Of a stretch of 64,000 nucleotides of DNA, positions 5,276-55,474 are shown in pieces. A program made the translations under genes and the position numbers. The notes under the pieces were generated by a model. It was not told the origin of the DNA. It was given only the letters and a program-made list of their open reading frames with translations, and ran no database searches. The stretch covers positions 1 to 64,000 of IMG/VR virus record IMGVR_UViG_3300028797_000148; one strand, 5' to 3'. Position 1 is the stretch's first letter; every line of letters starts with the position of its first letter. This DNA is from a virus (Duplodnaviria > Caudoviricetes).

Positions 5276-6118
5276 ATGAAAAAGTTTGTAATCTATATTC
5301 GTGTATCAACACGAAAGCAGGGCGCAAGCGGATTAGGCTTGGAAAGCCAGCGCAAGATATGTACCGACCTTGTTAAGTCAAAGGGCGGTGATGTTGTTGC
5401 AGAATTTAAGGACGTGGAAAGCGGTACGCACCGTGACAGAAAAGGTCTGCTGGCAGCGGTTGATTATTGCAAGAATAATAATTGCTCATTGGTTATCGCA
5501 AAGTTAGACCGCCTCGCCCGTGACGTGGAGTTTTGTTTCAAGGTAGTCAACACGGGTATAGATATTCACTTTGCGGATATGCCGACCATCAATACGCTTT
5601 TGCTTGGCGTGTTCGCGGCTGTGGCGCAGTACGAAAGGGAACTTACCAGCGACCGCACGGTCAAGGCTTTGGCGGCAAAGAAGGCACGCGGCGAAAAGAC
5701 TGGCGGCGCAAGTGACGCTTGGATTGAGAACTACAACAAGAAGTCAAATATAGAAAAGCATGAGATTGGAATGAGAAGAGGAGCAACAAAGAACGAAAGA
5801 CATCTTTTAAGCCGTGATGTGCAGGCGTTCATCAAGGCTTTGCGCAGCGTGTTCCCCGATGCCTGCAAGGGCGATGTAACCGAGTGGGATTTCAGCGCGA
5901 TAAACACAAAGGAAACCGCACGTATCAAGCTGTTATCATTGATGCGTGATTACAAGGAACTTGATAGCACGTTATTTGCAAAGTGGGATTTGTCGGGCGA
6001 CGATTTATCCGCAAGACATTTGCAGGTAAAATTGGCCGCACAGATTCAGTCTTTGAGAAACTCAGTCAAGAAACTCAATGAAAACAAAGACAACGAAAAA
6101 GGCGATGCCATCGAATAA
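5276..6118 (+). CDS. Serine recombinase (resolvase/invertase family)
   Basis: N-terminal YIRVSTRKQ catalytic Ser motif, ESG, KLDRLAR, AQYERE. Confidence 0.9.
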   Translation: MKKFVIYIRVSTRKQGASGLGLESQRKICTDLVKSKGGDVVAEFKDVESGTHRDRKGLLAAVDYCKNNNCSLVIAKLDRLARDVEFCFKVVNTGIDIHFADMPTINTLLLGVFAAVAQYERELTSDRTVKALAAKKARGEKTGGASDAWIENYNKKSNIEKHEIGMRRGATKNERHLLSRDVQAFIKALRSVFPDACKGDVTEWDFSAINTKETARIKLLSLMRDYKELDSTLFAKWDLSGDDLSARHLQVKLAAQIQSLRNSVKKLNENKDNEKGDAIE

Positions 6119-10746: not shown

Positions 10747-10778
10747 TTTGGTATATTCAAATATTCATAGTACATTTG
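10747..10778 (+). promoter_or_regulatory. Bacteroidota sigma-A promoter
   Basis: TTTG (10747-50), 20-nt spacer, TACATTTG (10771-78). Confidence 0.75.
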
Positions 10779-14640: not shown

Positions 14641-15654
14641 ATGGAAGAAGTAAAAGATTACAAGCAAGACGTCGCCCAAAGCCGTGTAGGTTGTTTGGGT
14701 AGTTCCGATGGCAAGATGCTGGCGCAGATTTGTGCGCTTGGCTATGTACCCAAATCAGCCCACAAGCGTTTGGCAATATGCAAAGGCTTGATTCCGCAGG
14801 AGGAGATTCCCCGTACCGCAGCTATCAAGGCTGGTGACGAAATGGAAATGCTTATCTACAAGCACCTCGCCGCCAACGACCCGCGTTATCAATCTAATCC
14901 AAAATGGGTGTCCGAAAAGTATTCGTATGCCAACGTTAAGCTGATTTCGCACCCCGACCTTGTATTGAAGGATGATGCAAGAAAGATTCTGTTCATCTAC
15001 GAGGTTAAGACCACTAAGTACTCCATTGAGGAAACACGGCAAACCTACAAGGCACAGCTTTTCATTCATTATCTTCTTGGAAAGGAGATTACGGATAAGC
15101 TTGGCGATGGATGGCAGGTTAAGCTTAACTTGGTTCACTACAACACCGACGGATTAGACCTCGCAGAGGCATTGGCAAACGACGCGCTGGAGCTTGACCC
15201 GTCACGCCTTACCGTTAAAGAGGTTCGCTTTACATCTGCCGCATATTTCGACATTAAGAAATCCATGCAGCTTGTAAACGATTTCCTTTCTACGTTCGTC
15301 GAGTTCTACGAAGGCGATGAGGTGGATGCCAATCTGCTGCCAGCAGCCGTAAAGACTCAGTTTGAGGATATTGCGGTAGTGTTGCAGGAAATCAAAGACC
15401 GCGAAAACAAGGTCGATGAGTTCAAGAAACGCCTCTATGAGTTCATGGTGGAAAAGGACATCAAGTCCATCAAGAACGACATGTTTGCCATTACCCGTGT
15501 AGACCCAACGGAAAGCAAGTCTTTCGACGGTAAGAAATACATGGATGATATGGCAAAAGAGCATCCCCGCAAGGCAAAGAAAATCTTGGCTAAGTACACC
15601 AAGACTGTTAAGCGCAAGGGCTATGCCACCATCAAGGTTAAGGAAGAGAAATAA
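14641..15654 (+). CDS. YqaJ/lambda-exonuclease-like recombination nuclease
   Basis: GSSD, G..ME, SHPD...YEVKT PD-(D/E)xK motifs; upstream of RecT. Confidence 0.8.
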   Translation: MEEVKDYKQDVAQSRVGCLGSSDGKMLAQICALGYVPKSAHKRLAICKGLIPQEEIPRTAAIKAGDEMEMLIYKHLAANDPRYQSNPKWVSEKYSYANVKLISHPDLVLKDDARKILFIYEVKTTKYSIEETRQTYKAQLFIHYLLGKEITDKLGDGWQVKLNLVHYNTDGLDLAEALANDALELDPSRLTVKEVRFTSAAYFDIKKSMQLVNDFLSTFVEFYEGDEVDANLLPAAVKTQFEDIAVVLQEIKDRENKVDEFKKRLYEFMVEKDIKSIKNDMFAITRVDPTESKSFDGKKYMDDMAKEHPRKAKKILAKYTKTVKRKGYATIKVKEEK

Positions 15655-15691: not shown

Positions 15692-16561
15692 ATGGCAGAA
15701 GAAAAGAAAGCTACGGGATTGAAATTGTTCAATCAGACAATCACCAACCCGTCAACACAAAAGTATCTCGCAGATGTTCTTGGCGAGCGCAAGGGTTCAT
15801 TCGTGAATAACCTTACTGCGCTTGTGGCAAACAACGCTATGTTGCAGGATTGCGAGCCTTACACGCTTATGTTCGCGGCTATGAAGGCTACGGCCTTGAA
15901 CTTGCCGCTTGACAACTCGCTGGGATTCGCATACGTTTTGCCTTACAAGGATAACAAGAAAGGCATTACGGTAGCGCAGTTCCAATTGGGCTACAAGGGC
16001 GTTAAGCAGCTGGCATTGCGCAGCGGTTCGTTTGCTACTATCCCCAATGCCACCGACGTCCGCGAGGGCGAGCTTATCAGCCGCAACCGCTTGACTGGTG
16101 AGTGCAAGTTCAACTTCATAGAGGATGCCGATGAGCGCGAATCCAAACCCGTTATAGGATTTGTTTCGTATTTCAAGCTCCTTAACGGCGCAGAATCCAC
16201 ATTCTACATGTCGCTCAAGGAGATGGAAAAGCACGCCCTGCGTTATTCACAGACCTACCGTTCAAAGGATAGCCGCATCAAGGCTGCATCAAAATGGACG
16301 ACGGACTTTAACGACATGGCCTGCAAGACGGTTGTTAAGCTGAATCTTTCAAAGAACGCCCCGTTATCCGTAGAGATGCAGGATGCCTTGAAAGCAGACC
16401 AAGCAATCATGTATGAGCGTGACAAGTACGAATACTTGGATAACGAGCAGGCGGAGGTCGATATGGCAAAGGCGCAGGCCGTAGCCGAAAAGTTCGCTGG
16501 TTTCGATAACGCCGAGGAGGTGACCGACCAAGGTGACGATAATGCTAACGGTAATAAATAA
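15692..16561 (+). CDS. recT: RecT-family single-strand annealing protein
   Basis: LPLDNSLGFAYVLPY, QFQLGYKG..QLA.RSG, W..DF..MA.KTV motifs. Confidence 0.92.
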   Translation: MAEEKKATGLKLFNQTITNPSTQKYLADVLGERKGSFVNNLTALVANNAMLQDCEPYTLMFAAMKATALNLPLDNSLGFAYVLPYKDNKKGITVAQFQLGYKGVKQLALRSGSFATIPNATDVREGELISRNRLTGECKFNFIEDADERESKPVIGFVSYFKLLNGAESTFYMSLKEMEKHALRYSQTYRSKDSRIKAASKWTTDFNDMACKTVVKLNLSKNAPLSVEMQDALKADQAIMYERDKYEYLDNEQAEVDMAKAQAVAEKFAGFDNAEEVTDQGDDNANGNK

Positions 16562-16784
16562 GTATTATGAGTCACGGATTAGAGATACTACATTCGCATA
16601 GTGGGCTTGAGCGGGACTTAAAGTTCCCCAAGCACACCGTGCTTATTGATGCAAAATTCGTGCATTTGTTCCACAAAGATACGGCTATTGCTTTCCGATA
16701 TGGCGGTATTGATTATTTCAAGGTTAATATCCTGCAATTCGTAAAGAACGGAGGCGTATTCAAAAATCTAAATTCATAGTAAAA

Positions 16785-17195
16785 ATGGAAAATAACGATT
16801 CTAAGCGTTTTCTGTTCGCGGACTGGAATAGTTGGCGGGCTTATATGGAAAAAGCCGTTGTAGGCTTTGCAAAGGGCTTTATTTCTATTATGTACGCAAT
16901 CTTTGGAGGTATCGCAACGCTCTTGTATAACGCTTTCATGGCTTTCAAGGCGATTGTGGTGAAATATCCCGTTCATTCGCTTGCTGCACTTTGCGTTATC
17001 CTTTCGGTTGTACTTATGTTCAATTACATTCGTTTCAGCGTGAAGGCGAAAACGGCAGAGGCACAGCGCGACAGCATCGGTTACGAGCTTTACAAGATAG
17101 AGCAGGCTCTTGGCGGTGATACTATTATCATCGGTGGTAAAACAAAGAAACAGAATTATCAGAAAACAAAACAGAAAGAAGAAGATGAAAACTGA
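16785..17195 (+). CDS. Membrane protein
   Basis: Two hydrophobic segments. Confidence 0.55.
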   Translation: MENNDSKRFLFADWNSWRAYMEKAVVGFAKGFISIMYAIFGGIATLLYNAFMAFKAIVVKYPVHSLAALCVILSVVLMFNYIRFSVKAKTAEAQRDSIGYELYKIEQALGGDTIIIGGKTKKQNYQKTKQKEEDEN

Positions 17196-17514
17196 CGATA
17201 GATTGGAGAATGTAGGCGGCATCAGAGGCCGTGCCTATGTGATGTTCGGTGGCAAGGTTGCACTTGGCACATTCAACGACGGTGAGCGTTTCGGCGGTAT
17301 TGCCTTTGCGGAGCTTCTTGACAAGAAAAACGTCGGTGACGATATTTCCAACAAGGAGCATTACGATGCGCAGGTCTATATCGAGGTGAAAAGCCTTGAG
17401 TCGTTGCAGGCGTTACGCGATGTGCTGGATATGTGCGAAAGCGCACTAAAAGACCAATTGGAAAAAGACCGCCTTGATGCAATAAATGGCGCAAAGGGCG
17501 AAACGCAAGTTTAG
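17185..17514 (+). CDS. Hypothetical protein
   Basis: Start taken at MKTDDRL. Confidence 0.55.
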   Translation: MKTDDRLENVGGIRGRAYVMFGGKVALGTFNDGERFGGIAFAELLDKKNVGDDISNKEHYDAQVYIEVKSLESLQALRDVLDMCESALKDQLEKDRLDAINGAKGETQV

Positions 17515-17534: not shown

Positions 17535-18359
17535 ATGGAAGCAAATATTAAAGAGTTAGTAAAAGACCCATCAGCATTGAAACTTTATCTGCTTGATAAG
17601 TTCGGCATGGTGGATGAGCCAAAGACCGTAGATTTCTGCAAGGAGGCTTACAAGTTTATCATGGATGGCGACATGCTACAAATAGTCGGCTTGGAGGCAA
17701 AAACGGGTATGCCCGTAGCAAAGCGCGTGTTTGGCATGAACATGGACGAAAAAGGAAACGTCCAAATGCACGGCGAAATACCTCCTTACATGAGCATCCA
17801 ACTGAAAGATGGCGTTTATTTTGTCTACGAGGATATTGACGGTAGCCGCCGTTGCGAACTTTTTGATGGTAAGAACGAAAAGGAGAATATCCAATACATT
17901 GCCTTTAAGTTCGGTGCTGTATCGCTGAAACTTTGGGGCGAGGACTTGGGAGAATTTCCGCTTACAACCAAAAAGGAGGCTGATGATGATTCGTGTTATA
18001 TCACGTCTTATGCAAAAGCAGCCTGCGATTTCAACGGTAAACGTTGGACTGAGTTGCTTGTGGAGCGTGGACTCTCGTTTGAACTTCCGAAAGACGACAA
18101 AAACGAATGGTACATTCCCGCTATTGGCGAGTTGTACGTGATGTATATATTTAAGAACTACATCAACGATGCCTTGAAGTACGCCAAGCGCAAGCCGTTA
18201 AAGGACGCTTGGTATTGGAGCAGTACGGAGACCTCTGCCGCGAGTGCTTGGGGTCTGGATTTCAACAATGGCGGCTTCTTCTACAACTACTACTACTGCC
18301 TCAAGACGGGTGAGAACTTAGTTCGCCCCGTGTCCGCATTTGACCCGTTATCGCTTTAA
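17535..18359 (+). CDS. C-type-lectin-fold (DUF1566-like) protein; remote DGR target
   Basis: DFNG..WT, WYIPAIGEL, YWSSTE...VRPVSAF motifs; 3' end matches TR except at TR adenines. Confidence 0.9.
   Translation: MEANIKELVKDPSALKLYLLDKFGMVDEPKTVDFCKEAYKFIMDGDMLQIVGLEAKTGMPVAKRVFGMNMDEKGNVQMHGEIPPYMSIQLKDGVYFVYEDIDGSRRCELFDGKNEKENIQYIAFKFGAVSLKLWGEDLGEFPLTTKKEADDDSCYITSYAKAACDFNGKRWTELLVERGLSFELPKDDKNEWYIPAIGELYVMYIFKNYINDALKYAKRKPLKDAWYWSSTETSAASAWGLDFNNGGFFYNYYYCLKTGENLVRPVSAFDPLSL
18224..18339 (+). repeat. DGR variable region VR2 (116 nt)
   Basis: Aligns to TR; 10 substitutions outside the AAC tract, all at TR adenines; 8 NNC codons replace (AAC)4. Confidence 0.92.
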
Positions 18360-18379
18360 CTCTTTATCCCTTTATCGAA

Positions 18380-18589
18380 ATGAAGAAGATATTATTGCTG
18401 ATATTCGCTGTTTCTGCTTTTGTGTGCTGCGGTGCTTACAGAAAAAACTATGATGAAAGCTGGCATGAGTTCGAGCCCATCGGTAACGGTGACCGTGCCT
18501 ATTTTCACACATTGGACTGTAAGGTGTGCAGCGCACATCACGCCAAAATGAAAAAAATAGAAGCAAAACAGAACAAAAATAATCTTTAA
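18380..18589 (+). CDS. Small secreted protein or lipoprotein
   Basis: MKK + hydrophobic signal ending in Cys; CKVC motif. Confidence 0.5.
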   Translation: MKKILLLIFAVSAFVCCGAYRKNYDESWHEFEPIGNGDRAYFHTLDCKVCSAHHAKMKKIEAKQNKNNL

Positions 18590-22085: not shown

Positions 22086-22117
22086 TTTGGTATATTACAA
22101 ATTACTTTGTATCTTTG
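22086..22117 (+). promoter_or_regulatory. Bacteroidota sigma-A promoter
   Basis: TTTG, 20-nt spacer, TATCTTTG; shares ATTTGGTATATT and TTTGCACCG with the 10747 promoter. Confidence 0.8.
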
Positions 22118-24458: not shown

Positions 24459-24884
24459 ATGATAAATTCATTCAGACGGTTGCTTATCCGAATAGGAAAG
24501 ATACTGCCTTTTGTTCTTTGCTTTATCGTTTGCATAAGCTACACAGAATCGCTATACGGCAATATCATTGTTTACGGTGATATTTCTTTCATAGAAACGC
24601 CAATATCTTTCTTTGTGGCAGAATACTTTGAATACGATTTACTTTCTTTGGCCGTGATGCTTACAATATCCGTAGCCATCGAAACGTGCTATTGGAATAA
24701 GCTCGCAATAATCTACCTTTGCATTAATCTTTACGAAAGAAGTTATTTTGCTACTACAGAAATAAGCGAGGAGGCCGCATTGTTGTTTGCCATATTAAAT
24801 ATTATCACAAGCGGCTTTCTTGCTTTCAAAGGAATTTATTTACTCATACATAATAAGAAAGATTATGAAACTCGACAAACGTGA
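24459..24884 (+). CDS. Multi-pass membrane protein
   Basis: About four hydrophobic segments. Confidence 0.6.
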   Translation: MINSFRRLLIRIGKILPFVLCFIVCISYTESLYGNIIVYGDISFIETPISFFVAEYFEYDLLSLAVMLTISVAIETCYWNKLAIIYLCINLYERSYFATTEISEEAALLFAILNIITSGFLAFKGIYLLIHNKKDYETRQT

Positions 24885-25764
24885 TGTTACCGTAGTGGAT
24901 AATCCCGAATTTAGGATGCTTAACAACCGTGTGGGATTGTTCAACTCCAGCTATCAAGACTTCAAACGCTATGGCATACCGAAAGCCCAGCTTATTTTGA
25001 CGGATATTCCGTATTCATTGGGCGACAAGGCTTACGGCAGTAATCCCAGCTGGTATATTGACGGTGATAACAAGAACGGCGAAAGCGACAAGGCTGGCGA
25101 AACATTCTTTGTGACAGACGAGAATTTCAAGCCAGCGGAGTTCATGCACTTTGCCGCACAGATGCTAAAGCCCGAACAAAAAGGAAAGGTCGACGAAAAC
25201 GACCGCACAAAGACAAGTGCGCCTTGCATGATTGTGTTCTGTGAGTTCATGCAGCAGTTCTATCTTATAGAGCTTGGTAAGCGTTACGGATTCAATCACT
25301 ATATCAATTTGGTTTTCCGTAAAAATTATTCGGCGCAGGTCTTGAAGGCAAACATGAAGATTGTAGGAAACTGCGAGTACGGCCTCGTCCTTTACCGTGA
25401 TAAGCTGCCAAAGTTCAACAATAACGGAACAATGGTTTTCAACTGCATGGACTGGCAGCGCGACTTGGGTATGCCGCGTATTCACGAAACGCAAAAACCG
25501 ATTCCGCTTTTGCAACGATTGATAGAGCTTTTCACAGACCCCGATGATGTCGTTATAGACCCGTGCGCAGGCAGCGGCAGTACATTGATTGCAGCGGCCA
25601 ACCTTGGGCGTAAGGCATACGGTCTCGAGATTTCAAAGCGTTTCTATGTGGATGCCCGCGATGCCATGCAGAATTATATCCAGCCCGATATGTTTGCTAT
25701 GCAGGAAAGCAGGTATTATCAGCGTAAAATGGCACAAGAACAAACACTTGCGCTTGATATTTAA
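24865..25764 (+). CDS. Orphan amino-DNA methyltransferase (N6A/N4C, beta-class motif order)
   Basis: Motif IV TDIPY precedes H.TQKP and motif I DPCAGSGS. Confidence 0.88.
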   Translation: MKLDKRDVTVVDNPEFRMLNNRVGLFNSSYQDFKRYGIPKAQLILTDIPYSLGDKAYGSNPSWYIDGDNKNGESDKAGETFFVTDENFKPAEFMHFAAQMLKPEQKGKVDENDRTKTSAPCMIVFCEFMQQFYLIELGKRYGFNHYINLVFRKNYSAQVLKANMKIVGNCEYGLVLYRDKLPKFNNNGTMVFNCMDWQRDLGMPRIHETQKPIPLLQRLIELFTDPDDVVIDPCAGSGSTLIAAANLGRKAYGLEISKRFYVDARDAMQNYIQPDMFAMQESRYYQRKMAQEQTLALDI

Positions 25765-26806: not shown

Positions 26807-26837
26807 CTTGAATATTTTATTTTTAATCATAAGAAAG

Positions 26838-27992
26838 ATGAGTAGAATTAAATTTAATGTTGATGAATGGCTACCCCGCTTATCGCAAGTTGTAGGCGTA
26901 GTTAATTCAAAAAATCCCCTGCCTATCCTTGGCGACATCTTAATCAAAACAGACATGGAAGCCCAAAGGGGGCTTACGTTCACAGCCAGCGATTCGGAAA
27001 CATGGCTCACCATCGAAGCACCACATCTTAGCTTTGACGATAGCTTTGAAATCTGCATCGCTGCCGTTGACTTCTACAAGGCATTATGCAATCTGAAAGG
27101 AAAGCAGGTTTGTATGACATTGGATGCCGAGCATCACACCGTAGAATGTGATTATGGCAATGGCCGTTTTACGATGGCCTACGAGGATGCTACGGAATAT
27201 CCAAAGCCAAACATGGATGCCAGCGATTCAAAAAGCAAGGTTATCGACGCTGATAAGCTGCTTTACGCGGTAAATAAGCCCGATTACGCCACCGCTAACG
27301 ATGAGTTACGCCCCGTAATGAATGGCATACGCCTTGAGTTCTTTGCAGATGGTATGGTAGCCGTTGCAAGCGACGGTCACAAGCTCGCAAAGTTCAAGGA
27401 TTTGTCTATCATTCCCGAAGGCGATAACGTGGAGGTTTGCGGTTTCACTTTGCCAAAGAAACCAGCTGGAGTGCTGCGTAATCTGCTTAATCAGTTCGGC
27501 GGCGATGTAAGCATCACCTTTAACGACAGATGTGCAACATTCGCAATTGCCGATTGCTTTACATTGAACACCCGCCTTATCGAAGGCCGTTATCCCAATT
27601 ATGAAAGCGTTATCCCAAGGGAAAATACCATCGTTGCCACTATTGACAAGGCTGCTTTCCTTGCTGCCATGAAACGTGTGCTGCCGATGAGTAACGCATC
27701 AAGCGAGCTTATCAGCTTTAAGTTTACGATGGGTAACATGGAGATTAGCGCAGAGGACTACGATTTCAGCCGTACCGCAAGCGAAAACATTTCCTGCGAC
27801 TATGCCAGCCCCGACCTACAGATTGGATTTAAGGGCAGCGTGATTATGGCCGTTCTGCAAAGCATTGATGATGATTCCGTAAAGGTCTACTTAAAGGATT
27901 CCATGCGTGCAGGCGTATTCATGCCAGCTACGCAAAAGGATAACACGTCATATCTTGCGCTTGCAATGCCGATGCTTATTCAAGACAAATAA
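26838..27992 (+). CDS. dnaN: DNA polymerase III beta sliding clamp
   Basis: LPILGDILI, ASDSE, DELRPVMNG, ASDGHKLA, RLIEGRYPNYESVIP, LAMPM motifs. Confidence 0.95.
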   Translation: MSRIKFNVDEWLPRLSQVVGVVNSKNPLPILGDILIKTDMEAQRGLTFTASDSETWLTIEAPHLSFDDSFEICIAAVDFYKALCNLKGKQVCMTLDAEHHTVECDYGNGRFTMAYEDATEYPKPNMDASDSKSKVIDADKLLYAVNKPDYATANDELRPVMNGIRLEFFADGMVAVASDGHKLAKFKDLSIIPEGDNVEVCGFTLPKKPAGVLRNLLNQFGGDVSITFNDRCATFAIADCFTLNTRLIEGRYPNYESVIPRENTIVATIDKAAFLAAMKRVLPMSNASSELISFKFTMGNMEISAEDYDFSRTASENISCDYASPDLQIGFKGSVIMAVLQSIDDDSVKVYLKDSMRAGVFMPATQKDNTSYLALAMPMLIQDK

Positions 27993-33533: not shown

Positions 33534-33687
33534 AATCTGTTAATTTTTTCCGATTTCTTTTACACGTTTCAAGAATATGTTAAATTTCTTGCTAATTCTT
33601 GCTAATTCTTTCAAGACTTGCAAGAATTGGAAAGAACTTGAAAGGATTGGATAAGGCAAATGCGCATACCCAACCCTTTTGTTCTAT

Positions 33688-33918
33688 CTACACGAAACGG
33701 CCTCGACTGTCACGACTGCGACGAAACTCCTCATCCATGTCGTTCTCGCTGTCCTCCCATCCGTGTTTGTAACCCATGCGGTAGCCTTGTTCGTATTCGT
33801 CGCCACGCATCATAGGCGAATAGCCATCGTGACGGTAGCCGCCACGCATCGAACGGCGCATTTGCTGACGCATCTTGCCGCCGCCCTCACTTTCCTTGTC
33901 TACAAAAATATATCCCAT
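33688..33918 (-). CDS. Small Arg/Gly-rich protein
   Basis: YEQGYRMGYKHG...RRSRDSRGRFV. Confidence 0.7.
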   Translation of the reverse strand: MGYIFVDKESEGGGKMRQQMRRSMRGGYRHDGYSPMMRGDEYEQGYRMGYKHGWEDSENDMDEEFRRSRDSRGRFV

Positions 33919-33945
33919 AGTCGTATTTGTTTTTAATGGAAAACA

Positions 33946-34491
33946 TTAGCCTTGAGACTTTCCTCCCGAACCGTTCAGTTGGCGTAGGATGGCGAGCATT
34001 TCGGAATTTTGCGCTTTTAGTTCTGCAAGCTGTGCATCTTGAGCCTTTTGCTTTTCCTGCAAAGACTGAATGACGCGTGCGTTTTGCTTATTTTCTGCAT
34101 ATTGCGGATTAAGCACCTCAAGCATCTTTTCCGATTCCGAGATAACGCTTTTGTGAAACGGCACTTGCTCTATCGCTTTTTTTGATGTCTGCAACATCGC
34201 ATCAACCGCTTGCAACATTGCTTCGCGGCTACCGCTAAACGTATCATTACCTCTTGCTGCGATTTCGACATTTATAGGAATCTCCGCAAATGTTTCGTCT
34301 TTGCCATTTATTGTTGCCACGATGTCAATAACCTGCTGCATCTGCATACCAGTCATAACATTTGGTGTTTGCGTTGGAAACTTGGCACGCGGCTGAGATT
34401 TTGTCTTAACCACGCCAACCTCCAAAACGGGCTTTTCGCCGCGTCTCAAAACGTAGAAGGGATTACCACTCCCAAGACTATTGAAATCCAT
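33946..34491 (-). CDS. Conserved hypothetical phage protein
   Basis: 181-aa ORF with C-terminal coiled coil. Confidence 0.75.
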   Translation of the reverse strand: MDFNSLGSGNPFYVLRRGEKPVLEVGVVKTKSQPRAKFPTQTPNVMTGMQMQQVIDIVATINGKDETFAEIPINVEIAARGNDTFSGSREAMLQAVDAMLQTSKKAIEQVPFHKSVISESEKMLEVLNPQYAENKQNARVIQSLQEKQKAQDAQLAELKAQNSEMLAILRQLNGSGGKSQG

Positions 34492-34879: not shown

Positions 34880-35830
34880 TTAAAATACAAAGTTGTTGCC
34901 ACCGAAACCGTTGCCGTAGAAACCACCCATGTACGGAGTAGAATTAACTACTTGTAAGTTGGGGTATTGTACGGGTACGGTGTTTGGCATCTTGTTCTTG
35001 ATGTCGTCCACTTGGTTCTGAATGCCTGCGAGCTGACCAAGGATAGGTGCAACGGCCTGCTGAACGACGCCAGTAGTGAAGTTTTGTGACTTCAACGTGG
35101 CGACCTCGGCGGTCAATGCCGTAATCTCACGGTCTTTGCGGTTGGATTCCATTTGGTCGAGCTTGTTGTCAAGCGCAAGATAGTTGCGGTTCATCGTGTC
35201 GGTCAAAGCGTATGTCTGTTGACACATCGCCAATTGGTCGGCTGCGGCCTTTGCGTCTACCTTGTTGCCAACGCCGTTGATTGCGTTTTGCAAGGTGTTC
35301 GTTTGCTGACAAGTAGCAAGCTGTTGGTCGCAACAACACTTTTGGAAAGTGCTTATGATGTTTGCGTCGCCGCTTTGAATTGAATTGATGATTTGCGGTA
35401 CGCTTACGGCTTGCTGCAATGCCAATGTCTGCAATGCGTTCTGAACCGTCTGCACGCCTTGATTGACAAGGTTGAAGTCTTGGCCAAGCATCGTTGACAA
35501 AGTTTGGATTGCCGTGCGCGATGCCTCGCCTTGGTTCGTGATTGCATTCATGATAAGCTCACGACCCGAATCGTTCGACAACTGATTAGCCAAGAAAGCC
35601 GCGCCTGAGTTTCCTCCGCCAAAGCCTCCATTGCCAAATCCGCCACCGTTCCAGCCGAACATTGAAGCAATGATAGCAAGTCCAAATAAATCAGCAATCC
35701 CGTTCATGCCGTAGCCGCCGAAACCGCCGAATCCACCCATTCCAAAACCACCGATGGGAATTGAAAACGGAATGTTACCAAAGCCGCTATTACCGTTTCC
35801 GTTCTCGGGTAATTGATAAATTTCTGCCAT
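34880..35830 (-). CDS. Gly-rich membrane-anchored coiled-coil protein
   Basis: GGFG repeats, hydrophobic segment, CC motifs, Q/N-rich helices. Confidence 0.8.
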   Translation of the reverse strand: MAEIYQLPENGNGNSGFGNIPFSIPIGGFGMGGFGGFGGYGMNGIADLFGLAIIASMFGWNGGGFGNGGFGGGNSGAAFLANQLSNDSGRELIMNAITNQGEASRTAIQTLSTMLGQDFNLVNQGVQTVQNALQTLALQQAVSVPQIINSIQSGDANIISTFQKCCCDQQLATCQQTNTLQNAINGVGNKVDAKAAADQLAMCQQTYALTDTMNRNYLALDNKLDQMESNRKDREITALTAEVATLKSQNFTTGVVQQAVAPILGQLAGIQNQVDDIKNKMPNTVPVQYPNLQVVNSTPYMGGFYGNGFGGNNFVF

Positions 35831-35899
35831 TGTTATTTTCCTTTCTTTTCTTTGTTAAACTTGTTGTTAATTCAAACCGTGTTGTAACGTTACACGGTG

Positions 35900-35930
35900 C
35901 AAATTTACATCGTAAGAAAAGAAAGACAAA
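35900..35930 (-). promoter_or_regulatory. Promoter for the 35830-32712 cassette
   Basis: Minus strand: TTTG (35930-27), 19-nt spacer, TAAATTTG (35907-00). Confidence 0.7.
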
Positions 35931-36018
35931 GCGGGACTTACATAAGTCCGCTTATATAATATAACGCATTGATAATCAACGTGTTATATAAACAAAATCA
36001 CCAAAACAAAAATTTTTT

Positions 36019-37296
36019 CTATGGATTATCCGATATAAAAGGCTGTGTATCAACGGGTATCTCTATGCCAGCCAGCTCAAAATTTATCGGGTCTTTCATG
36101 TAATACACCTTTGGATAATCGTCAACACAGCCCGTCCGTTTCGTGTTACGCAAAAGATGGATGCTTTCGTAGTGGCCTTTTACGTAAATCTTTGACCATA
36201 TTTCGGGTGAAATCATACCTATAAGCTTGCGACGTATGTGGTACGTATCATATTGTCGCATAACACCAAGGTAGCTGTTTATGCTTTGCATGTTATGCAC
36301 CAGCTTCTTGTGCGATGTGGAAAAGTTGTTTAGGCGGTATATGGCGTCGTAGGCGTTTCTTACGGTACGAACACCGACGTATGTGCGATATGGCTTAACA
36401 ACCGCACCTATAAACGCCACACCCTTTGTATAGTGCTGGAAATAGAATTTGTCGGGATGCAGGTAAACATGCAGGTAAAGGCTCAAGAAACGCCGTATCT
36501 TTTCCATGTCCTTGAGCATTTTCTGCTTTTCCTCTTCCGTTTCGCAAACGGCCATGAAATACCCGTCGTCCACATACCGACCGTGATATTTGTACCCAAG
36601 CTTTTCTATGTGAACATCAAGCCAATGCAAAAGGAAATTGGCATTATGCTGGCTCGGCAGATTACCTATTGGCAATCCAAGACCTGCACCGTTTGTAAAT
36701 AATGATTTGTTCTTTGGCAATTGCCTCCATAATTCATCGGGGCTATGCCTGCGGCAGTCCTTTTCGGGCTCATGCAGCATAACCACCTCACTAAGCCAAA
36801 GAATATCCTCCTTATCCTCGCCGAAATAGTTGTCCTTGATGAACTGCAAGAGCATCTTGTTAAGCAGCTGCACATCAATAGACATAAAGAATCCCTGCAA
36901 GTCGAATTTGGCTATCCAAACATCTTTCGTGTAACCCTCGCTACATTCGTACATATCCTTTTCCAATTGCGCCACACCGTACATTACGCCCTTACCCTTG
37001 CGGCAGTTGAATGTCCTATCTGTGAACAGCTTCTCGAGCAAAGGCTCTACACGCATGGCGATATAGTGATGCACGATTCTATCGCGAAATCCCGCAGCGA
37101 ACACCTCCCGCAGTTTCGGTTTCGTAACCACAAAGGCGATGCTTGTTGATGGTCGGTAAGTTCGGGCGTTTATCTCATCAGCCAATCTAAGTAAATCCCG
37201 CTGATAATCGGGGAAATACTTTATATAAGATGGCGATGATGCCTTGTGAATCTTACAAATTTGGAATGCCTCAAATAAGTATTCATCCCTTACCAT
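36019..37296 (-). CDS. DGR reverse transcriptase
   Basis: FRDRIVH, GLPIGNLPSQ (DGR-type GxxxSQ), YVDD active site; adjacent TR and Avd. Confidence 0.96.
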   Translation of the reverse strand: MVRDEYLFEAFQICKIHKASSPSYIKYFPDYQRDLLRLADEINARTYRPSTSIAFVVTKPKLREVFAAGFRDRIVHHYIAMRVEPLLEKLFTDRTFNCRKGKGVMYGVAQLEKDMYECSEGYTKDVWIAKFDLQGFFMSIDVQLLNKMLLQFIKDNYFGEDKEDILWLSEVVMLHEPEKDCRRHSPDELWRQLPKNKSLFTNGAGLGLPIGNLPSQHNANFLLHWLDVHIEKLGYKYHGRYVDDGYFMAVCETEEEKQKMLKDMEKIRRFLSLYLHVYLHPDKFYFQHYTKGVAFIGAVVKPYRTYVGVRTVRNAYDAIYRLNNFSTSHKKLVHNMQSINSYLGVMRQYDTYHIRRKLIGMISPEIWSKIYVKGHYESIHLLRNTKRTGCVDDYPKVYYMKDPINFELAGIEIPVDTQPFISDNP

Positions 37297-37387
37297 AGCA
37301 CAAAAATATATTCCGTTATATACCGTCTATTATACCATTCCAATATTGGAGCGCAAACTTTATTTATTGTCTTGTGTATTCTATCAG

Positions 37388-37491
37388 ATGCGGACACGGG
37401 GCGAACTAAGTTCTCATTCGTCTTGTTGTTGTTGTTGAAGTTGCCATTGTTGAAATTCAGATTCCAAGCATTCGTGGCAGAGTTCTCCGTA
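37388..37491 (-). repeat. DGR template repeat TR (104 nt)
   Basis: 13 AAY codons; differs from VR1 and VR2 only at adenines (plus the VR2 expansion). Confidence 0.96.
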
Positions 37492-37738: not shown

Positions 37739-38095
37739 TTATTTCATAGTAGCCTTGCGCCAACCAGTCGCCTCGCGGCCTATCTCATCGAGCCTACGGG
37801 CGATATTCGCGTGGGATTTTTCGTCGATAATCTTTTTATCCTGCGATAATGCAAGCAAGAAGAACAATTGCTCTTGCACAAGGATGAAATCCCTGCCAAG
37901 CACACGGACACGTTCCTCGGAATTTGGCGGGCAAAGATTAGCCTCAACGATTTTCATACTAAGCTGTAATGTCAAATCCTCGATGCGGCGGGCTATCGTT
38001 GCACGGTATTCCGCTTTAATCTTCTTTGTAACGCCAAACACGTATTTCGCGAGTTCAAACGTATCTTTGTATATCTTTGTATCTCTTGCAAGCAT
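37739..38095 (-). CDS. avd: DGR accessory variability determinant
   Basis: 118-aa basic helical protein ending EIGREATGW, located between target and TR. Confidence 0.88.
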   Translation of the reverse strand: MLARDTKIYKDTFELAKYVFGVTKKIKAEYRATIARRIEDLTLQLSMKIVEANLCPPNSEERVRVLGRDFILVQEQLFFLLALSQDKKIIDEKSHANIARRLDEIGREATGWRKATMK

Positions 38096-38164
38096 ATATC
38101 GTAGGACGTTGTTGTTGACCTTATTTTGTTATAATTTGCGAAGTTGCCATTAGTGTAATCCCCC

Positions 38165-38212
38165 GTCCTATACCCCGATACCGTCGTTAAGACGATAAAG
38201 GGGACAAAGGAC
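38165..38212. promoter_or_regulatory. Imperfect hairpin/cruciform downstream of VR1
   Basis: GTCC/GGAC, CCCC/GGGG and CGTC/GACG stems; position matches the DGR target-recognition hairpin. Confidence 0.55.
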
Positions 38213-38227
38213 TAAAGAGATAAATGG

Positions 38228-38974
38228 TTAATAAAATGCGGACACGGGGCGAACTAAGCCCTCATACGTCTTGTAGTAGTCGTTGAAGTAGCCAAGGGTG
38301 AAACGCAGATGCCAAGCACTCGTGGCAGAGTACTCCGTAGAAGACCATCCCCAAGACGAACCGACTGGAATTGCAGTACCGCTGATTGCCGCCATGACGA
38401 AGTTGATTTCGCGGACGTGCGCCCAAATCATTGCCATCTCGCCGAGTGAAGGCAACCACCAGCGGCCAGCACCCATATTGGCGTCGGCAGAATCGACATT
38501 GCTGGGGTGATACTCGTTGCAATACTTTGCGGCAGGCGCGTTTGCACCGAGCGTTGTCAGAATGGTGTCCGTCTTTGCGCGGCCATCGAAATCGGCAATA
38601 GCCGTGCGGCGGTCGGTGATGAAGGTAGTGCCACCCGTAACGTTAGATGTAGCCCATGCCTTTGTCGCTTGGTCTTTCGCGATGATAAGCGTGCGCCCGT
38701 TCTCGATGATACCCGCACCAACGGCGATGCTGGCGATGCTGCTTTCCAATGCACGGTCGGCAGGCCAAAAACGTGTGTATGAATCCACGTTTGTAACCAC
38801 CATAACGTTTCCGATGGTAGGCAGTACGCTTTGCAGCTTCTTTGCGAAGTTGGCGTAGGAGTCGCTACCCATAAGCTCGTTGCTGGAGTTAAGGATAGGC
38901 ACGCGAGCACCCGATGCAGCAGCCGTAGTGTTGGCATTGTGCAGGGCTTTAAGAGCATTTTGAATTGTTCCCAT
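38228..38974 (-). CDS. C-type-lectin-fold (DUF1566-like) DGR target, probable receptor-binding tail protein
   Basis: DFDG..T, WWLPSLGEM, WSSTE...VRPVSAFY; last gene of the tail-fibre block. Confidence 0.9.
   Translation of the reverse strand: MGTIQNALKALHNANTTAAASGARVPILNSSNELMGSDSYANFAKKLQSVLPTIGNVMVVTNVDSYTRFWPADRALESSIASIAVGAGIIENGRTLIIAKDQATKAWATSNVTGGTTFITDRRTAIADFDGRAKTDTILTTLGANAPAAKYCNEYHPSNVDSADANMGAGRWWLPSLGEMAMIWAHVREINFVMAAISGTAIPVGSSWGWSSTEYSATSAWHLRFTLGYFNDYYKTYEGLVRPVSAFY
38236..38339 (-). repeat. DGR variable region VR1 (104 nt)
   Basis: Ungapped match to TR with 15 mismatches, all at TR adenines. Confidence 0.96.
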
Positions 38975-39053: not shown

Positions 39054-39383
39054 TTAACCCGCTATCTTTACCCATGTGGAAAGGCTGTTTGAACCGTATG
39101 TCACGATTTCGCCATTGTACGTGACATTCTCGCTATTGTATGTAACGATGTGGTTTGGCGTGCCTACGATGGATGCGGTGCTTATGAAAGTCTCCTTTGC
39201 TACCGTGATAAGCGAGTTTTGTGCATACGTAGCCGTTGGCGAAAGCGACTCTACCGAACCAAGAATCTTGATGCGGTTGGTCTCTACGGTCGTACTTAGG
39301 TTGGAAACGAGCGTCCTTACACGCGCCCATACCCAGCCCAAGCCCGCACCGTCGAGTTTCTTGTCGTCCGTTTGTACTGCCAT
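39054..39383 (-). CDS. Tail fibre-associated protein
   Basis: N-terminus shared with 39408..40091; VTYN repeats. Confidence 0.6.
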   Translation of the reverse strand: MAVQTDDKKLDGAGLGWVWARVRTLVSNLSTTVETNRIKILGSVESLSPTATYAQNSLITVAKETFISTASIVGTPNHIVTYNSENVTYNGEIVTYGSNSLSTWVKIAG

Positions 39384-39407
39384 AACACTTGTTTATACGG
39401 TAGTGTA

Positions 39408-40091
39408 TTATGTTGTTGAGCAGATGCTTTCAATCTCGGACTGCGAAAGCGTTTCCACATCATCCTTGGTTGCATAGTTGCTCAAGTCGATGAATCCTTG
39501 GTACACGTCGAACTTGTAAACGGCTGGCGTGCTGCCCTCGGCAGGTGATGATTCGATAACATAGACGTTAGTTCCCTTTGGATAGGTTTTGGTAACGCCC
39601 TGCTCATACTCCTCGAAACGGTTGTCGATGGTGAATCCGTCGCTCATGTTCCACATCCATCCAAGGTTAGCCGAAGATGGTGTCGGGAGGTTGGCGAAAG
39701 CAAGAGAGCCCTTTGGCTTGATGTATGCCTGCAACTTAGCGTCGATGGCGTTGTTTACATCTGTAGCGGTCTGATAGCCAGCACCGTTAGCCAAGGATGC
39801 GTTATCGGTGGGTACGGGGATATTAACACTCTTGTCAGTAACGGTAAGTGCCGTGCCATTGACCTTTACGGTCTCGATAACGTTTACCTGCGCACCCGAA
39901 GCAATTGCATCCAGCTTTGATTTCAAAGCAGATGTGAAATTCATGTCGGTATGCACATACGATGCGTCCTTAACTACGTTATCATCGTTAGTAAGGTCGC
40001 TGGTCTTGGTTGGTACGATGGATTTGATGATACCCCAAAGTATTCCCAAACCCGCACCGTCAAGCTTTTTGTCGTCTGTTTGTACTGCCAT
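39408..40091 (-). CDS. Tail fibre-associated protein
   Basis: VPTKTSDLTND, DASYVHTD, GAQVNVIE.VKVNG motifs typical of phage fibre proteins. Confidence 0.7.
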   Translation of the reverse strand: MAVQTDDKKLDGAGLGILWGIIKSIVPTKTSDLTNDDNVVKDASYVHTDMNFTSALKSKLDAIASGAQVNVIETVKVNGTALTVTDKSVNIPVPTDNASLANGAGYQTATDVNNAIDAKLQAYIKPKGSLAFANLPTPSSANLGWMWNMSDGFTIDNRFEEYEQGVTKTYPKGTNVYVIESSPAEGSTPAVYKFDVYQGFIDLSNYATKDDVETLSQSEIESICSTT

Positions 40092-41148: not shown

Positions 41149-41179
41149 CAAAGATAAACAATGTTTTTGAATATACAAA
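41149..41179 (-). promoter_or_regulatory. Internal promoter for the distal fibre/DGR genes
   Basis: Minus strand: TTTG (41179-76), 19-nt spacer, TATCTTTG (41156-49). Confidence 0.65.
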
Positions 41180-53692: not shown

Positions 53693-55474
53693 TTATATTG
53701 TACTTAATATGTTTAATATTTCGCTTGCGTTCCGTATCTTTCTTACACGGTGTATTCTTGTATCAACCTCCTCTTGGCCGTTGACGTTAAGCAAGGCCAG
53801 CATATCGCTCGCCTGCGCTTTCTTGCGCATAATGCCAGCATCGTCACGTAACATTCGGTAGCAGTCGTATATAGTGCCGCCGCAAAGGAGAATGATGTTA
53901 TCCATAAGGTCGGGCGACATTCCTTTTAGCAATGCCTTCATCTTTTCCTTTGGCAGCATCTCTAAACGGCCATTCGGCGTTTTGCTGAATTGGAACACAC
54001 GGCTTTCAAATACCATGTGTTTCATTACCGTAGTGCCTCCCGACCGTTTCATGTTCTTGTGATTATAGTGAGCATTTGCGAGTCGCGGCTCATAGTGAAT
54101 AAGGCCGCTTTGAATCATCTCCATAGCGACATGGCCTGCCTCATCCTTCATCGTTTTGAATTGGGCTTTACCGCGATTGCTTGGCGAGCCTGCACCGCTA
54201 AATAATATCGCACGCGGGAAGCAATCCTTTAGGAATCCAAATCCCTGCACGTCTATAATCATCTCCTTTTCTTGCAGCTTGTGCTTGTCACGGAATTGTA
54301 TAGCCATGATTACGGCCTCGCGGTTGCTGTTGCTTGTGGAATATTCAATATCCCTGCACACCCAGCCATAATGCGACCACAGCTCCCAATACTTGAATAT
54401 CAAGTTATCGAATCCCGTTGTAGCCATATCCATTGTCATTCGCCGTTGCAATACTTCGCAGCCAGCAGGCGTTTCCAATGGTCTGAACATGCGCTCCACA
54501 TCGTTTGTGGCTAACTCCACGTTTGATAAATCCTCGATGCTTTCCTCTTCGTCCGTTAATGAATAGTTCCAATTAACAGAATACGATGATGCTGCTGTAG
54601 CGGAGTTGGCTGCAAGGCCACGATAACCTTTATTCTTTGATAGCATTTTCTTGTTGTCACGAACATCAAACGTGTAAAACACCATCGAAAGGATAAAGTC
54701 CTCGTATGTCATGTCGGGGTCTTCTGCCAAACGCGCATCTATGTCGGCTTTGCCTTTTTCATAGACCTCTCGTTTTGTTCTGCCCCAAACGGCTTTTTCA
54801 TAATCACCGTTAGGCATAAAGAAAAACATAACGACGCCATCCATCGACTTGTCGACCGTACCGTCGTCGTTAATCCACCCACCGCCATGTACGCCTTTTC
54901 CGCACATCTTACGCATAAAACACTCCCTTTCGGGGTTCTGCGCGAGGAATACTTGCGCCTTTCCGCTTGTGTCGCTACGCAAACGCGGGAAGAATGTGGA
55001 TATTGTTCGCCATAAGAATTTGTTGCACTCGTCGAAAATGAGCTTTTTCGCCTGCAAGCCTTTTGCGATTTTATCTATAACGATAGGGTTCTCGTTATCC
55101 AGCTGCTGAAACTTAATCTCAGAGCCGTTATAGAGTTTCATACCCATGTCTTGATTGTTACGGATAATCTCGCCTATTGGGTCGTGCGGCTGTTTCTTTG
55201 TTGTACGGTCGATAAGAGGGTACATCTTTTTAAGCGTATCATTTACCTTTCCCGCGCCCCAAAAGTCGCTGATATTACGCATAAAGCATACTATCTTAGC
55301 GTTATCGTTCGTAGCAAGGTGCATGATAGGCGCATAGTACAATGCAACGGATTTGCCGCCGCCCGTACCCCCCGTAAAGCATACGACATCAGCATTAGAA
55401 CGGATAGCAAACTTTTGGTTGCCATCCTCTAAAGGTGCTAATACAATATCGTTACGCTTACGTGCCATACGCAA
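53693..55474 (-). CDS. terL: Terminase large subunit
   Basis: Walker A GGTGGGKS, Walker B LIFDE, nuclease MDMA...D, SPDLMD. Confidence 0.88.
   Translation of the reverse strand: MRMARKRNDIVLAPLEDGNQKFAIRSNADVVCFTGGTGGGKSVALYYAPIMHLATNDNAKIVCFMRNISDFWGAGKVNDTLKKMYPLIDRTTKKQPHDPIGEIIRNNQDMGMKLYNGSEIKFQQLDNENPIVIDKIAKGLQAKKLIFDECNKFLWRTISTFFPRLRSDTSGKAQVFLAQNPERECFMRKMCGKGVHGGGWINDDGTVDKSMDGVVMFFFMPNGDYEKAVWGRTKREVYEKGKADIDARLAEDPDMTYEDFILSMVFYTFDVRDNKKMLSKNKGYRGLAANSATAASSYSVNWNYSLTDEEESIEDLSNVELATNDVERMFRPLETPAGCEVLQRRMTMDMATTGFDNLIFKYWELWSHYGWVCRDIEYSTSNSNREAVIMAIQFRDKHKLQEKEMIIDVQGFGFLKDCFPRAILFSGAGSPSNRGKAQFKTMKDEAGHVAMEMIQSGLIHYEPRLANAHYNHKNMKRSGGTTVMKHMVFESRVFQFSKTPNGRLEMLPKEKMKALLKGMSPDLMDNIILLCGGTIYDCYRMLRDDAGIMRKKAQASDMLALLNVNGQEEVDTRIHRVRKIRNASEILNILSTI

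Follow-up and report, generated by a model that had tools for sequence, protein, structure and literature searches.

The diversity-generating retroelements (DGRs) carried by phages are usually explained as a means of switching host receptors. In the model for Bordetella phage BPP-1, the reverse transcriptase (RT) and Avd reverse-transcribe the transcript of a template repeat (TR) with random misincorporation opposite adenines, and an inverted repeat or hairpin downstream of the variable repeat (VR) is needed for efficient homing.

Non-adjacent second targets within 50 kb are common among phage-associated DGRs (Wu 2018, PMC5758913). In Quimbyvirus, a second target described as 'non-structural' lies near methyltransferases, and a role in phage-host conflict has been proposed for it (Benler 2021, PMC8008677); four more such prophage species have been reported from a study of temperate gut phages (Nature 2025, PMC12629997). 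A distal DGR target, Bacuni_F1_00026, is also known from the cultured Bacteroides uniformis phages Bacuni F1, F2 and F4, where both targets were read as adhesion proteins (Hedzet 2021, PMC8143477).

Here we describe a distal target in a phage from bovine gut. The window, that is, the whole stretch of DNA that was analyzed, comprises positions 1 to 64,000 of an IMG/VR virus record of 84,652 bp that is rated 100% complete. A direct terminal repeat of 133 bp, 99% identical between its two copies, is present at positions 1-133 and 84521-84652 of the genome (1-133 of the window), which is consistent with a complete genome. The TerL of the phage is nearest to that of Bacteroides phage C3_41T2LP, with 53% identity.

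One template repeat and two targets

The DGR genes on the - strand are in the order T1, Avd, TR, RT, the classical layout of a DGR cassette. Target gene 1 (T1, 38228-38974) encodes 248 aa, matches phrog_4245 and includes VR1 at 38232-38339. The 118-aa Avd accessory protein (37739-38095) scores 41.3 bits against the Pfam model bAvd, for which the cut-off is 40, and matches NCBIfam DivGenRetAVD at E 5e-8, which is under the cut-off of that model. The TR (37384-37491) has 13 AAY codons in the target frame, and the RT (36019-37296, 425 aa) matches Pfam RVT_1 with 40.1 bits, the cut-off being 29.6. There are 15 A-site mismatches between VR1 and the TR. An Rfam scan of the TR region gave no match.

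RT, Avd and TR are all intact, and the same replicon contains a second copy of the repeat on the + strand. Target gene 2 (T2, 17535-18359) is an ORF of 274 aa, and VR2 takes up about 120 nt at its 3' end, from 18224 to about 18341 (the alignment extends to 18343), or residues 231-269 of the protein. A blastn comparison of 18151-18400 with the window returns the TR (37491-37384) and VR1 (38339-38193), both on the - strand, and nothing else of note. The distance between the TR and VR2, which are on opposite strands, is 19.0 kb.

With a 12-nt gain in VR2 removed, 14 of the 14 substitutions between the TR and VR2 are at TR adenines, including 10 outside the AAC tract. Since the TR contains 36 A in 108 nt, the probability of all 14 falling on A by chance is about (1/3)^14, or ~2e-7. 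One extra change, C>T at TR position 104, is located where the homology ends and is the same in VR1. VR2 is at the 3' end of its ORF and within the predicted C-type-lectin fold, and the TR adenines occupy positions 1 and 2 of AAY codons. An invariant GC-rich 3' core of 28 nt (GAGAAC...GCAT; 18312-18339, + strand), which forms an IMH-like boundary, is identical in the TR, VR1 and VR2. Directly past GCAT, both VRs have TT whereas the TR has CT, and the sequences then diverge. A 19-nt 3' core, GTTCGCCCCGTGTCCGCAT, has exactly three copies in the 84,652-bp genome, namely those in VR2, the TR and VR1. The first-pass annotation had already listed 10 substitutions outside the AAC tract, all at TR adenines, and a 3' end identical to the TR, and the alignment agrees on both counts. 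As certainly as sequence analysis allows, the single DGR of this phage has in VR2 a true second target that is not adjacent to it.

The 12-nt gain is in frame and lies in the AAC tract of VR2 (18279-18302, + strand), which has eight NNC codons rather than the four found in the TR and VR1. The short tract of four residues is present in 15 of 15 aligned homologues, and in two related strains (X3 and X4) VR2 is without the 12 nt and has the length of the TR. The eight NNC codons differ from one another only at TR-A positions, and thus the gain did not arise by simple duplication within VR2. Slippage at the AAC repeats of the template in reverse transcription is consistent with it. Differences in length between TR and VR are found in 7% of DGRs, with indels beside AAC repeats, and slippage by the RT has been proposed as their source (Wu 2018, PMC5758913).

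The blastn match between VR2 and VR1 runs on beyond the VRs, to 18377 and 38193, respectively. A pyrimidine-rich CTTTA/CCCTTTATC motif found 3' of VR2 (18348-18377, + strand) is also present in the VR1 flank and absent after the TR. Folding shows the motif together with a strong hairpin 3' of VR1 (38150-38227, - strand), and no hairpin 3' of VR2 (fold z-score 0.25). In three other genomes, G003, G004 and G005, a CTTT-rich motif and a strong hairpin come after the VRs, as at VR1; in VR2 of the window phage and of a close relative, L001, the motif is kept and the hairpin is lost. More generally, a CTTT-rich repeat with CTCTTTG or CCCTTTA units occurs after every VR of this DGR clade, including that of Bacuni F1, and is usually the 5' arm of a strong hairpin, while the TRs are without it. 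The motif could be part of target recognition, or simply a sign of shared ancestry. An inverted repeat is not treated as a universal feature in the survey of Wu 2018 (PMC5758913), where it was detectable in only 34% of DGRs.

Genomic setting and relatives of the second target

T2 is part of a long co-directional block of genes on the + strand. Upstream of T2 in the same early block are a RecE-like exonuclease (14641-15654) and RecT (15692-16561), and further along, past T2, the genes for a DNA methyltransferase (24820-25764) and a sliding clamp (26808-27992). Among the products of the virion module, which is on the - strand, are the large terminase (53693-55474), tail proteins and a protein that weakly matches a tail-fibre family. 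T1 is located at the end of this tail module, with tail genes upstream of it.

The Bacteroidota promoter pattern TTTG-N17-23-TAnnTTTG has 8 matches in the window as compared to 2.8 expected by chance, and this enrichment supports a Bacteroidota host. The sites, which are pattern matches only, are at 10747, 22086 and 25805 on the + strand and at 1281, 19166, 35900, 41149 and 50432 on the - strand; most are at plausible starts of gene blocks. The + strand match at 10747-10778 and the next one on that strand, at 22086-22117, bracket RecE, RecT and T2, and so T2 is inside a putative unit of 10.8-22 kb that is separate from T1. The - strand match at 41149 is upstream of genes leading to T1. Scans for sigma-70 promoters and terminators around T2 gave fewer sites than in shuffled sequence. 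Cumulative GC skew was tried as a test of common replication polarity of the VRs; it was uninformative, as the skew merely tracks the direction of transcription.

The flanks of T2 contain two small ORFs. One of 69 aa (18380-18589) begins 20 nt past the T2 stop and has an N-terminus like that of a signal peptide or lipoprotein (MKKILLLIFAVSAFVCCG...); the other, on the opposite flank (16785-17195), encodes 136 aa with long hydrophobic stretches. Neither is conserved beside T2 in the sister clade. Elsewhere in the window, two adjacent fibre-like genes (g109 and g227, with 109 and 227 aa; 39054-40091) share the same first 16 residues, MAVQTDDKKLDGAGLG, a motif absent from both T1 and T2. A possible integrase, which would point to a temperate lifestyle, is encoded by a gene resembling serine recombinases and DNA invertases (5276-6118; phrog_125, E 3e-29).

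Homologues of T2 make up 106 clusters in a large protein database, and relatives are found on at least 437 IMG/VR viral contigs. Neither the region nor T2 had a match in the 'phages' collection by megablast and tblastn at E 1e-5; at E 1, the Bacuni phages are the only matches. A 90%-identical relative has a syntenic gene order. In diverged members, the gene is always in co-directional arrays of small early genes, where its partners are SSB, DUF4406, exonuclease, RecT, N6/N4 methyltransferase, ParB or SAM synthetase. The contig of one distant family member (P0095) has host-like outer-membrane and pectate-lyase genes alongside. For the window phage itself, the first-pass annotation had placed the gene between RecT and other early or middle genes, and the neighbors identified here (the RecE-like exonuclease, RecT, the methyltransferase and the sliding clamp) are in accord with that placement.

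In G003, G004 and G005, which are complete or near-complete genomes with RTs 40-47% identical to that of the window, the T2-family member is likewise a remote DGR target. It is 49 kb from the TR and on the opposite strand in G003, with 14 of 14 mismatches at TR adenines, and 12 kb from the TR on the same strand in G004 (11/11) and G005 (18/18). A sister clade provides 61 variants of a 254-aa protein, which have a mean identity of 91% over residues 1-212. All 13 of the hypervariable columns, each with 8-14 different residues, are in the last 40 residues; the mean entropy there is 1.16 bits, versus 0.27 bits elsewhere. It had been claimed that one RT and TR serve both VR1 and the remote VR2 on the opposite strand, and the A-only mismatches, the recurrence of the layout in three diverged genomes and the confinement of hypervariability to the VR among the 61 variants all uphold this.

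A close relative of the phage, G001 (TerL 83% identical, rated 97% complete), has kept homologues of T1 and T2 (about 35701-36808 and 16691-17434) and has no avd-TR-RT: T1 and the next conserved gene are ~380 nt apart, and the record contains no RT. Either the DGR core was lost with the targets retained, or it was gained in the lineage of the window phage. A T2-type protein can thus function without continuing diversification.

Variation in VR2 was examined in 23 public runs as Logan contigs, which are silent on minority variants. In the probable source sample (X1, X2), a single assembled contig of 10.7 kb passes through VR2 with zero differences. Apparent G>A 'variants' in this sample were rejected because they come from alignment of the TR/VR1 contig to its paralogue, and another piece, in X2, was set aside as belonging to a different phage. 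The bovine-gut or related samples X3 and X4 contain strains about 2% diverged in the flanks of VR2 that differ from it at TR-A positions. Given these differences and the TR length of VR2 in both strains, VR2 has been rewritten since those lineages split. L001 was ruled out as a comparison; with 8% divergence in the gene body and non-A differences in the VR, its VR is not comparable to the window TR.

The T2 protein and its possible role

The similarity of T1 and T2 is limited to ~120 residues at the C-terminus (35% identity, E 1e-15), as expected from the earlier remark that the lectin part is common to T2 and the tail target and the N-terminus is unrelated. T2, like T1, matches phrog_4245. 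Its match to the Pfam family PF07603 Lcl_C (DUF1566) has E 3.8e-7 and 30.8 bits against a gathering cut-off of 34.9; most of its homologues are precomputed as PF07603, and a profile of the T2 family matches Legionella Lcl (8q4e) at E 9.7e-7. T2 was also modeled with AlphaFold2 from 44 homologues. The pLDDT of the model is 85-91 over residues 89-252, while residues 1-88, which begin with a helical hairpin, are poorly modelled. The best structural match of the model is 4eps_A (Z 12.8, rmsd 3.2, 172 residues aligned, T2 residues 47-269), and the part matched is the C-terminal half of the Bacteroides ovatus pilus-tip protein BACOVA_04982. Further matches are the C-terminal domain of Legionella Lcl (Z 7.5) and, on the viral side, the model of a crAss-like phage protein with DUF1566 (E 5.8e-10). 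T2 is predicted, then, to consist of an N-terminus followed by a beta-sandwich and a C-type-lectin adhesin fold of the DUF1566/Lcl_C-like kind. No signal peptide or membrane segment was detected in it, the maximum 19-residue hydropathy being 0.71. For the N-terminal 150 residues, neither features nor structure led to a better-than-chance match in the Atlas, and a profile search of PDB sequences gave chance-level matches only.

If the DGR works as in BPP-1 (Wu 2018, PMC5758913), the TR transcript would be reverse-transcribed by RT and Avd with random misincorporation opposite adenines. The cDNA would replace the homologous stretch upstream of the GC-rich 3' core that the TR and VRs have in common, in the adjacent T1 and also, acting in trans, in the opposite-strand T2 at a distance of 19 kb. 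The product of T2 would be a small soluble protein with a lectin-fold surface subject to recoding at about 13 AAY codons. Because T2 is encoded with the early RecE/RecT and replication genes, and is probably transcribed with them and not with the virion genes, its product most likely has its role within the infected cell, or at any rate is not the receptor-binding tip, and it may be read as a variable binder in phage-host conflict.

The best-supported reading, which we hold to be probable, is that T2 is a DGR-diversified, non-virion binder acting in the cell. An intracellular or non-virion location is plausible because the early-operon position is conserved and export signals are lacking, and also from the Bacuni isolates discussed below. 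Several observations count against this reading, including the extracellular-adhesin fold of T2, which is known from 4eps and Lcl and is also present in T1; a VR2 that has no hairpin and differs in length from the TR; and the lack of a DGR core in G001. Further, absence from the virion does not follow from gene position alone.

The adhesin fold makes a virion or extracellular role possible, although we think it unlikely. T2 would in that case be a virion-associated or extracellular adhesin encoded outside the structural module, serving as a decoration protein or as a second tip that binds a receptor or glycan, and would be docked via its N-terminal helical region. Such a role agrees with a fold that is that of an adhesin tip, with the homology of the C-terminal domain to T1, with structural neighbors in BFVD that include proteins annotated as tail fibre, and with the interpretation in Hedzet 2021 (PMC8143477). 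However, the early-operon position is conserved across diverged phages, T2 is on the strand opposite the structural module, and its N-terminus resembles neither T1 nor the repeated N- and C-terminal motifs of the neighboring fibre genes. The deposited Bacuni genomes, compared directly over 3.5 kb around the distal target, also speak against it. F1 and F2, which have the same host, are separated by 16 substitutions that are confined to 76 nt of the distal VR, and F1 and F4, which have different hosts, are identical over the whole 3.5 kb. These three isolates are a small piece of evidence that the distal VR is not a determinant of host range, in agreement with Hedzet 2021 (PMC8143477).

Two other explanations concern VR2 rather than the protein. 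In the lineage of the window phage, VR2 could be a decaying or rarely used target that was written once and is no longer efficiently rewritten. The missing inverted repeat downstream, the 12 nt by which VR2 exceeds the present TR and the single haplotype through the 10.7-kb contig of the source sample all fit this, as does an identical protein (P0001) of a relative on 9 contigs from several samples. Yet X3 and X4, with only about 2% flank divergence, have a different VR2, of TR length and with A-site changes; the reading frame and IMH-like core of VR2 are intact; the 34% of DGRs with a detectable inverted repeat (Wu 2018, PMC5758913) are a minority; and contigs hide minority variants. We regard decay as improbable. 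Far less credible is that T2 and T1 resemble each other merely through paralogous duplication of a lectin domain, unrelated to the DGR. The two genes do have the domain and some of the downstream flank in common, but VR2 departs from the TR at adenines alone (chance probability about 2e-7), the differences between VR1 and VR2 involve all four bases, and the two proteins share only about 35% identity upstream of the VR. With the A-only pattern present in four genomes, this explanation is effectively refuted.

A broader version of the intracellular-binder reading is offered tentatively, and we would give it only a small chance of being right. The T2 family could be an early-expressed, cytoplasmic set of hypervariable binders, a phage 'antibody' repertoire whose binding would neutralise variable host defence proteins or rival mobile elements, with the same solution recruited independently in Quimby/LoVE-type phages from an unrelated protein.

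Comparison with known systems

The locus resembles that of BPP-1 (mtd-avd-TR-brt) in having an RT, Avd and TR, adenine-specific mutagenesis of AAY codons, a VR at the 3' end of a gene with a C-type-lectin fold, and a GC-rich IMH-like boundary. The only target in BPP-1 is an adjacent tail-fibre gene with an inverted repeat after it, whereas the window phage has a second target that is 19 kb away, without a hairpin and outside the virion module. The arrangement, the indel in the AAC tract and the missing hairpin are all already-known kinds of variation. The DUF1566 class, too, is an established DGR target category, 'd' in Wu 2018 (PMC5758913). Residues 47-269 of T2 are structurally like 4eps and DUF1566 domains of the Legionella Lcl/LdtA type. 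The 4eps and Lcl proteins are exported to the cell surface and have pilin or collagen-like N-terminal parts; in contrast, T2 has no signal peptide and an unrelated N-terminus.

Quimbyvirus and LoVEphage have the same layout as the window phage: one RT and TR, a tail-adjacent target and a distal target on the opposite strand near methyltransferases. Their distal target has been suggested in print to be non-structural and related to defence (PMC8008677, PMC12629997). In LoVEphage (MW660583.1), VR2 is at 34003-34116 and 19 of 19 mismatches are at TR adenines. The distal target itself (33613-34197, 194 aa) has no detectable relation to T2, with nothing found by tblastn and an hhalign probability of 0.2%, and so the layout appears to have arisen more than once. 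From the sequences, the LoVEphage target looks like an independent recruitment of a different lectin-type protein; Quimby/LoVE-type phages would have reached the same layout with an unrelated protein. A non-virion target had been presented in the first-pass annotation as unexplained, and that view overstated the novelty: the arrangement and the speculation about defence had been published (PMC8008677, PMC12629997), as had a direct homologue of T2 (PMC8143477). The window adds a complete 85-kb example from bovine gut to a known layout and opens no new question. A diversified protein among recombination and replication genes does suggest a further role of targeted hypermutation in gut phages, which may be intracellular counter-defence.

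The direct homologue is Bacuni_F1_00026, to which T2 is related over its full length (30% identity, E 1e-25, residues 7-269 by blastp). The RTs of the window phage and the Bacuni phages are 46-49% identical, and in both the IMH-like core encodes a VRPVSAF ending. Like T2, the Bacuni gene is a second target at some distance from the RT (about 11 kb), and its place between DNA polymerase A and a C5-methyltransferase is a replication-module position like that of T2. There are also differences. The Bacuni phages are siphoviruses of 40 kb, as compared to 85 kb for the window phage; their protein has 224 aa and is without the ~45-residue insert that follows the N-terminal helices in T2; and their distal VR keeps a GC-rich hairpin downstream, which VR2 does not have. 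A large uncultured family, which comprises over 100 protein clusters and is found on at least 437 viral contigs, is now linked to the distal target of the Bacuni phages, which can be cultivated and thus provide a model in which the function of the T2 family could be tested.
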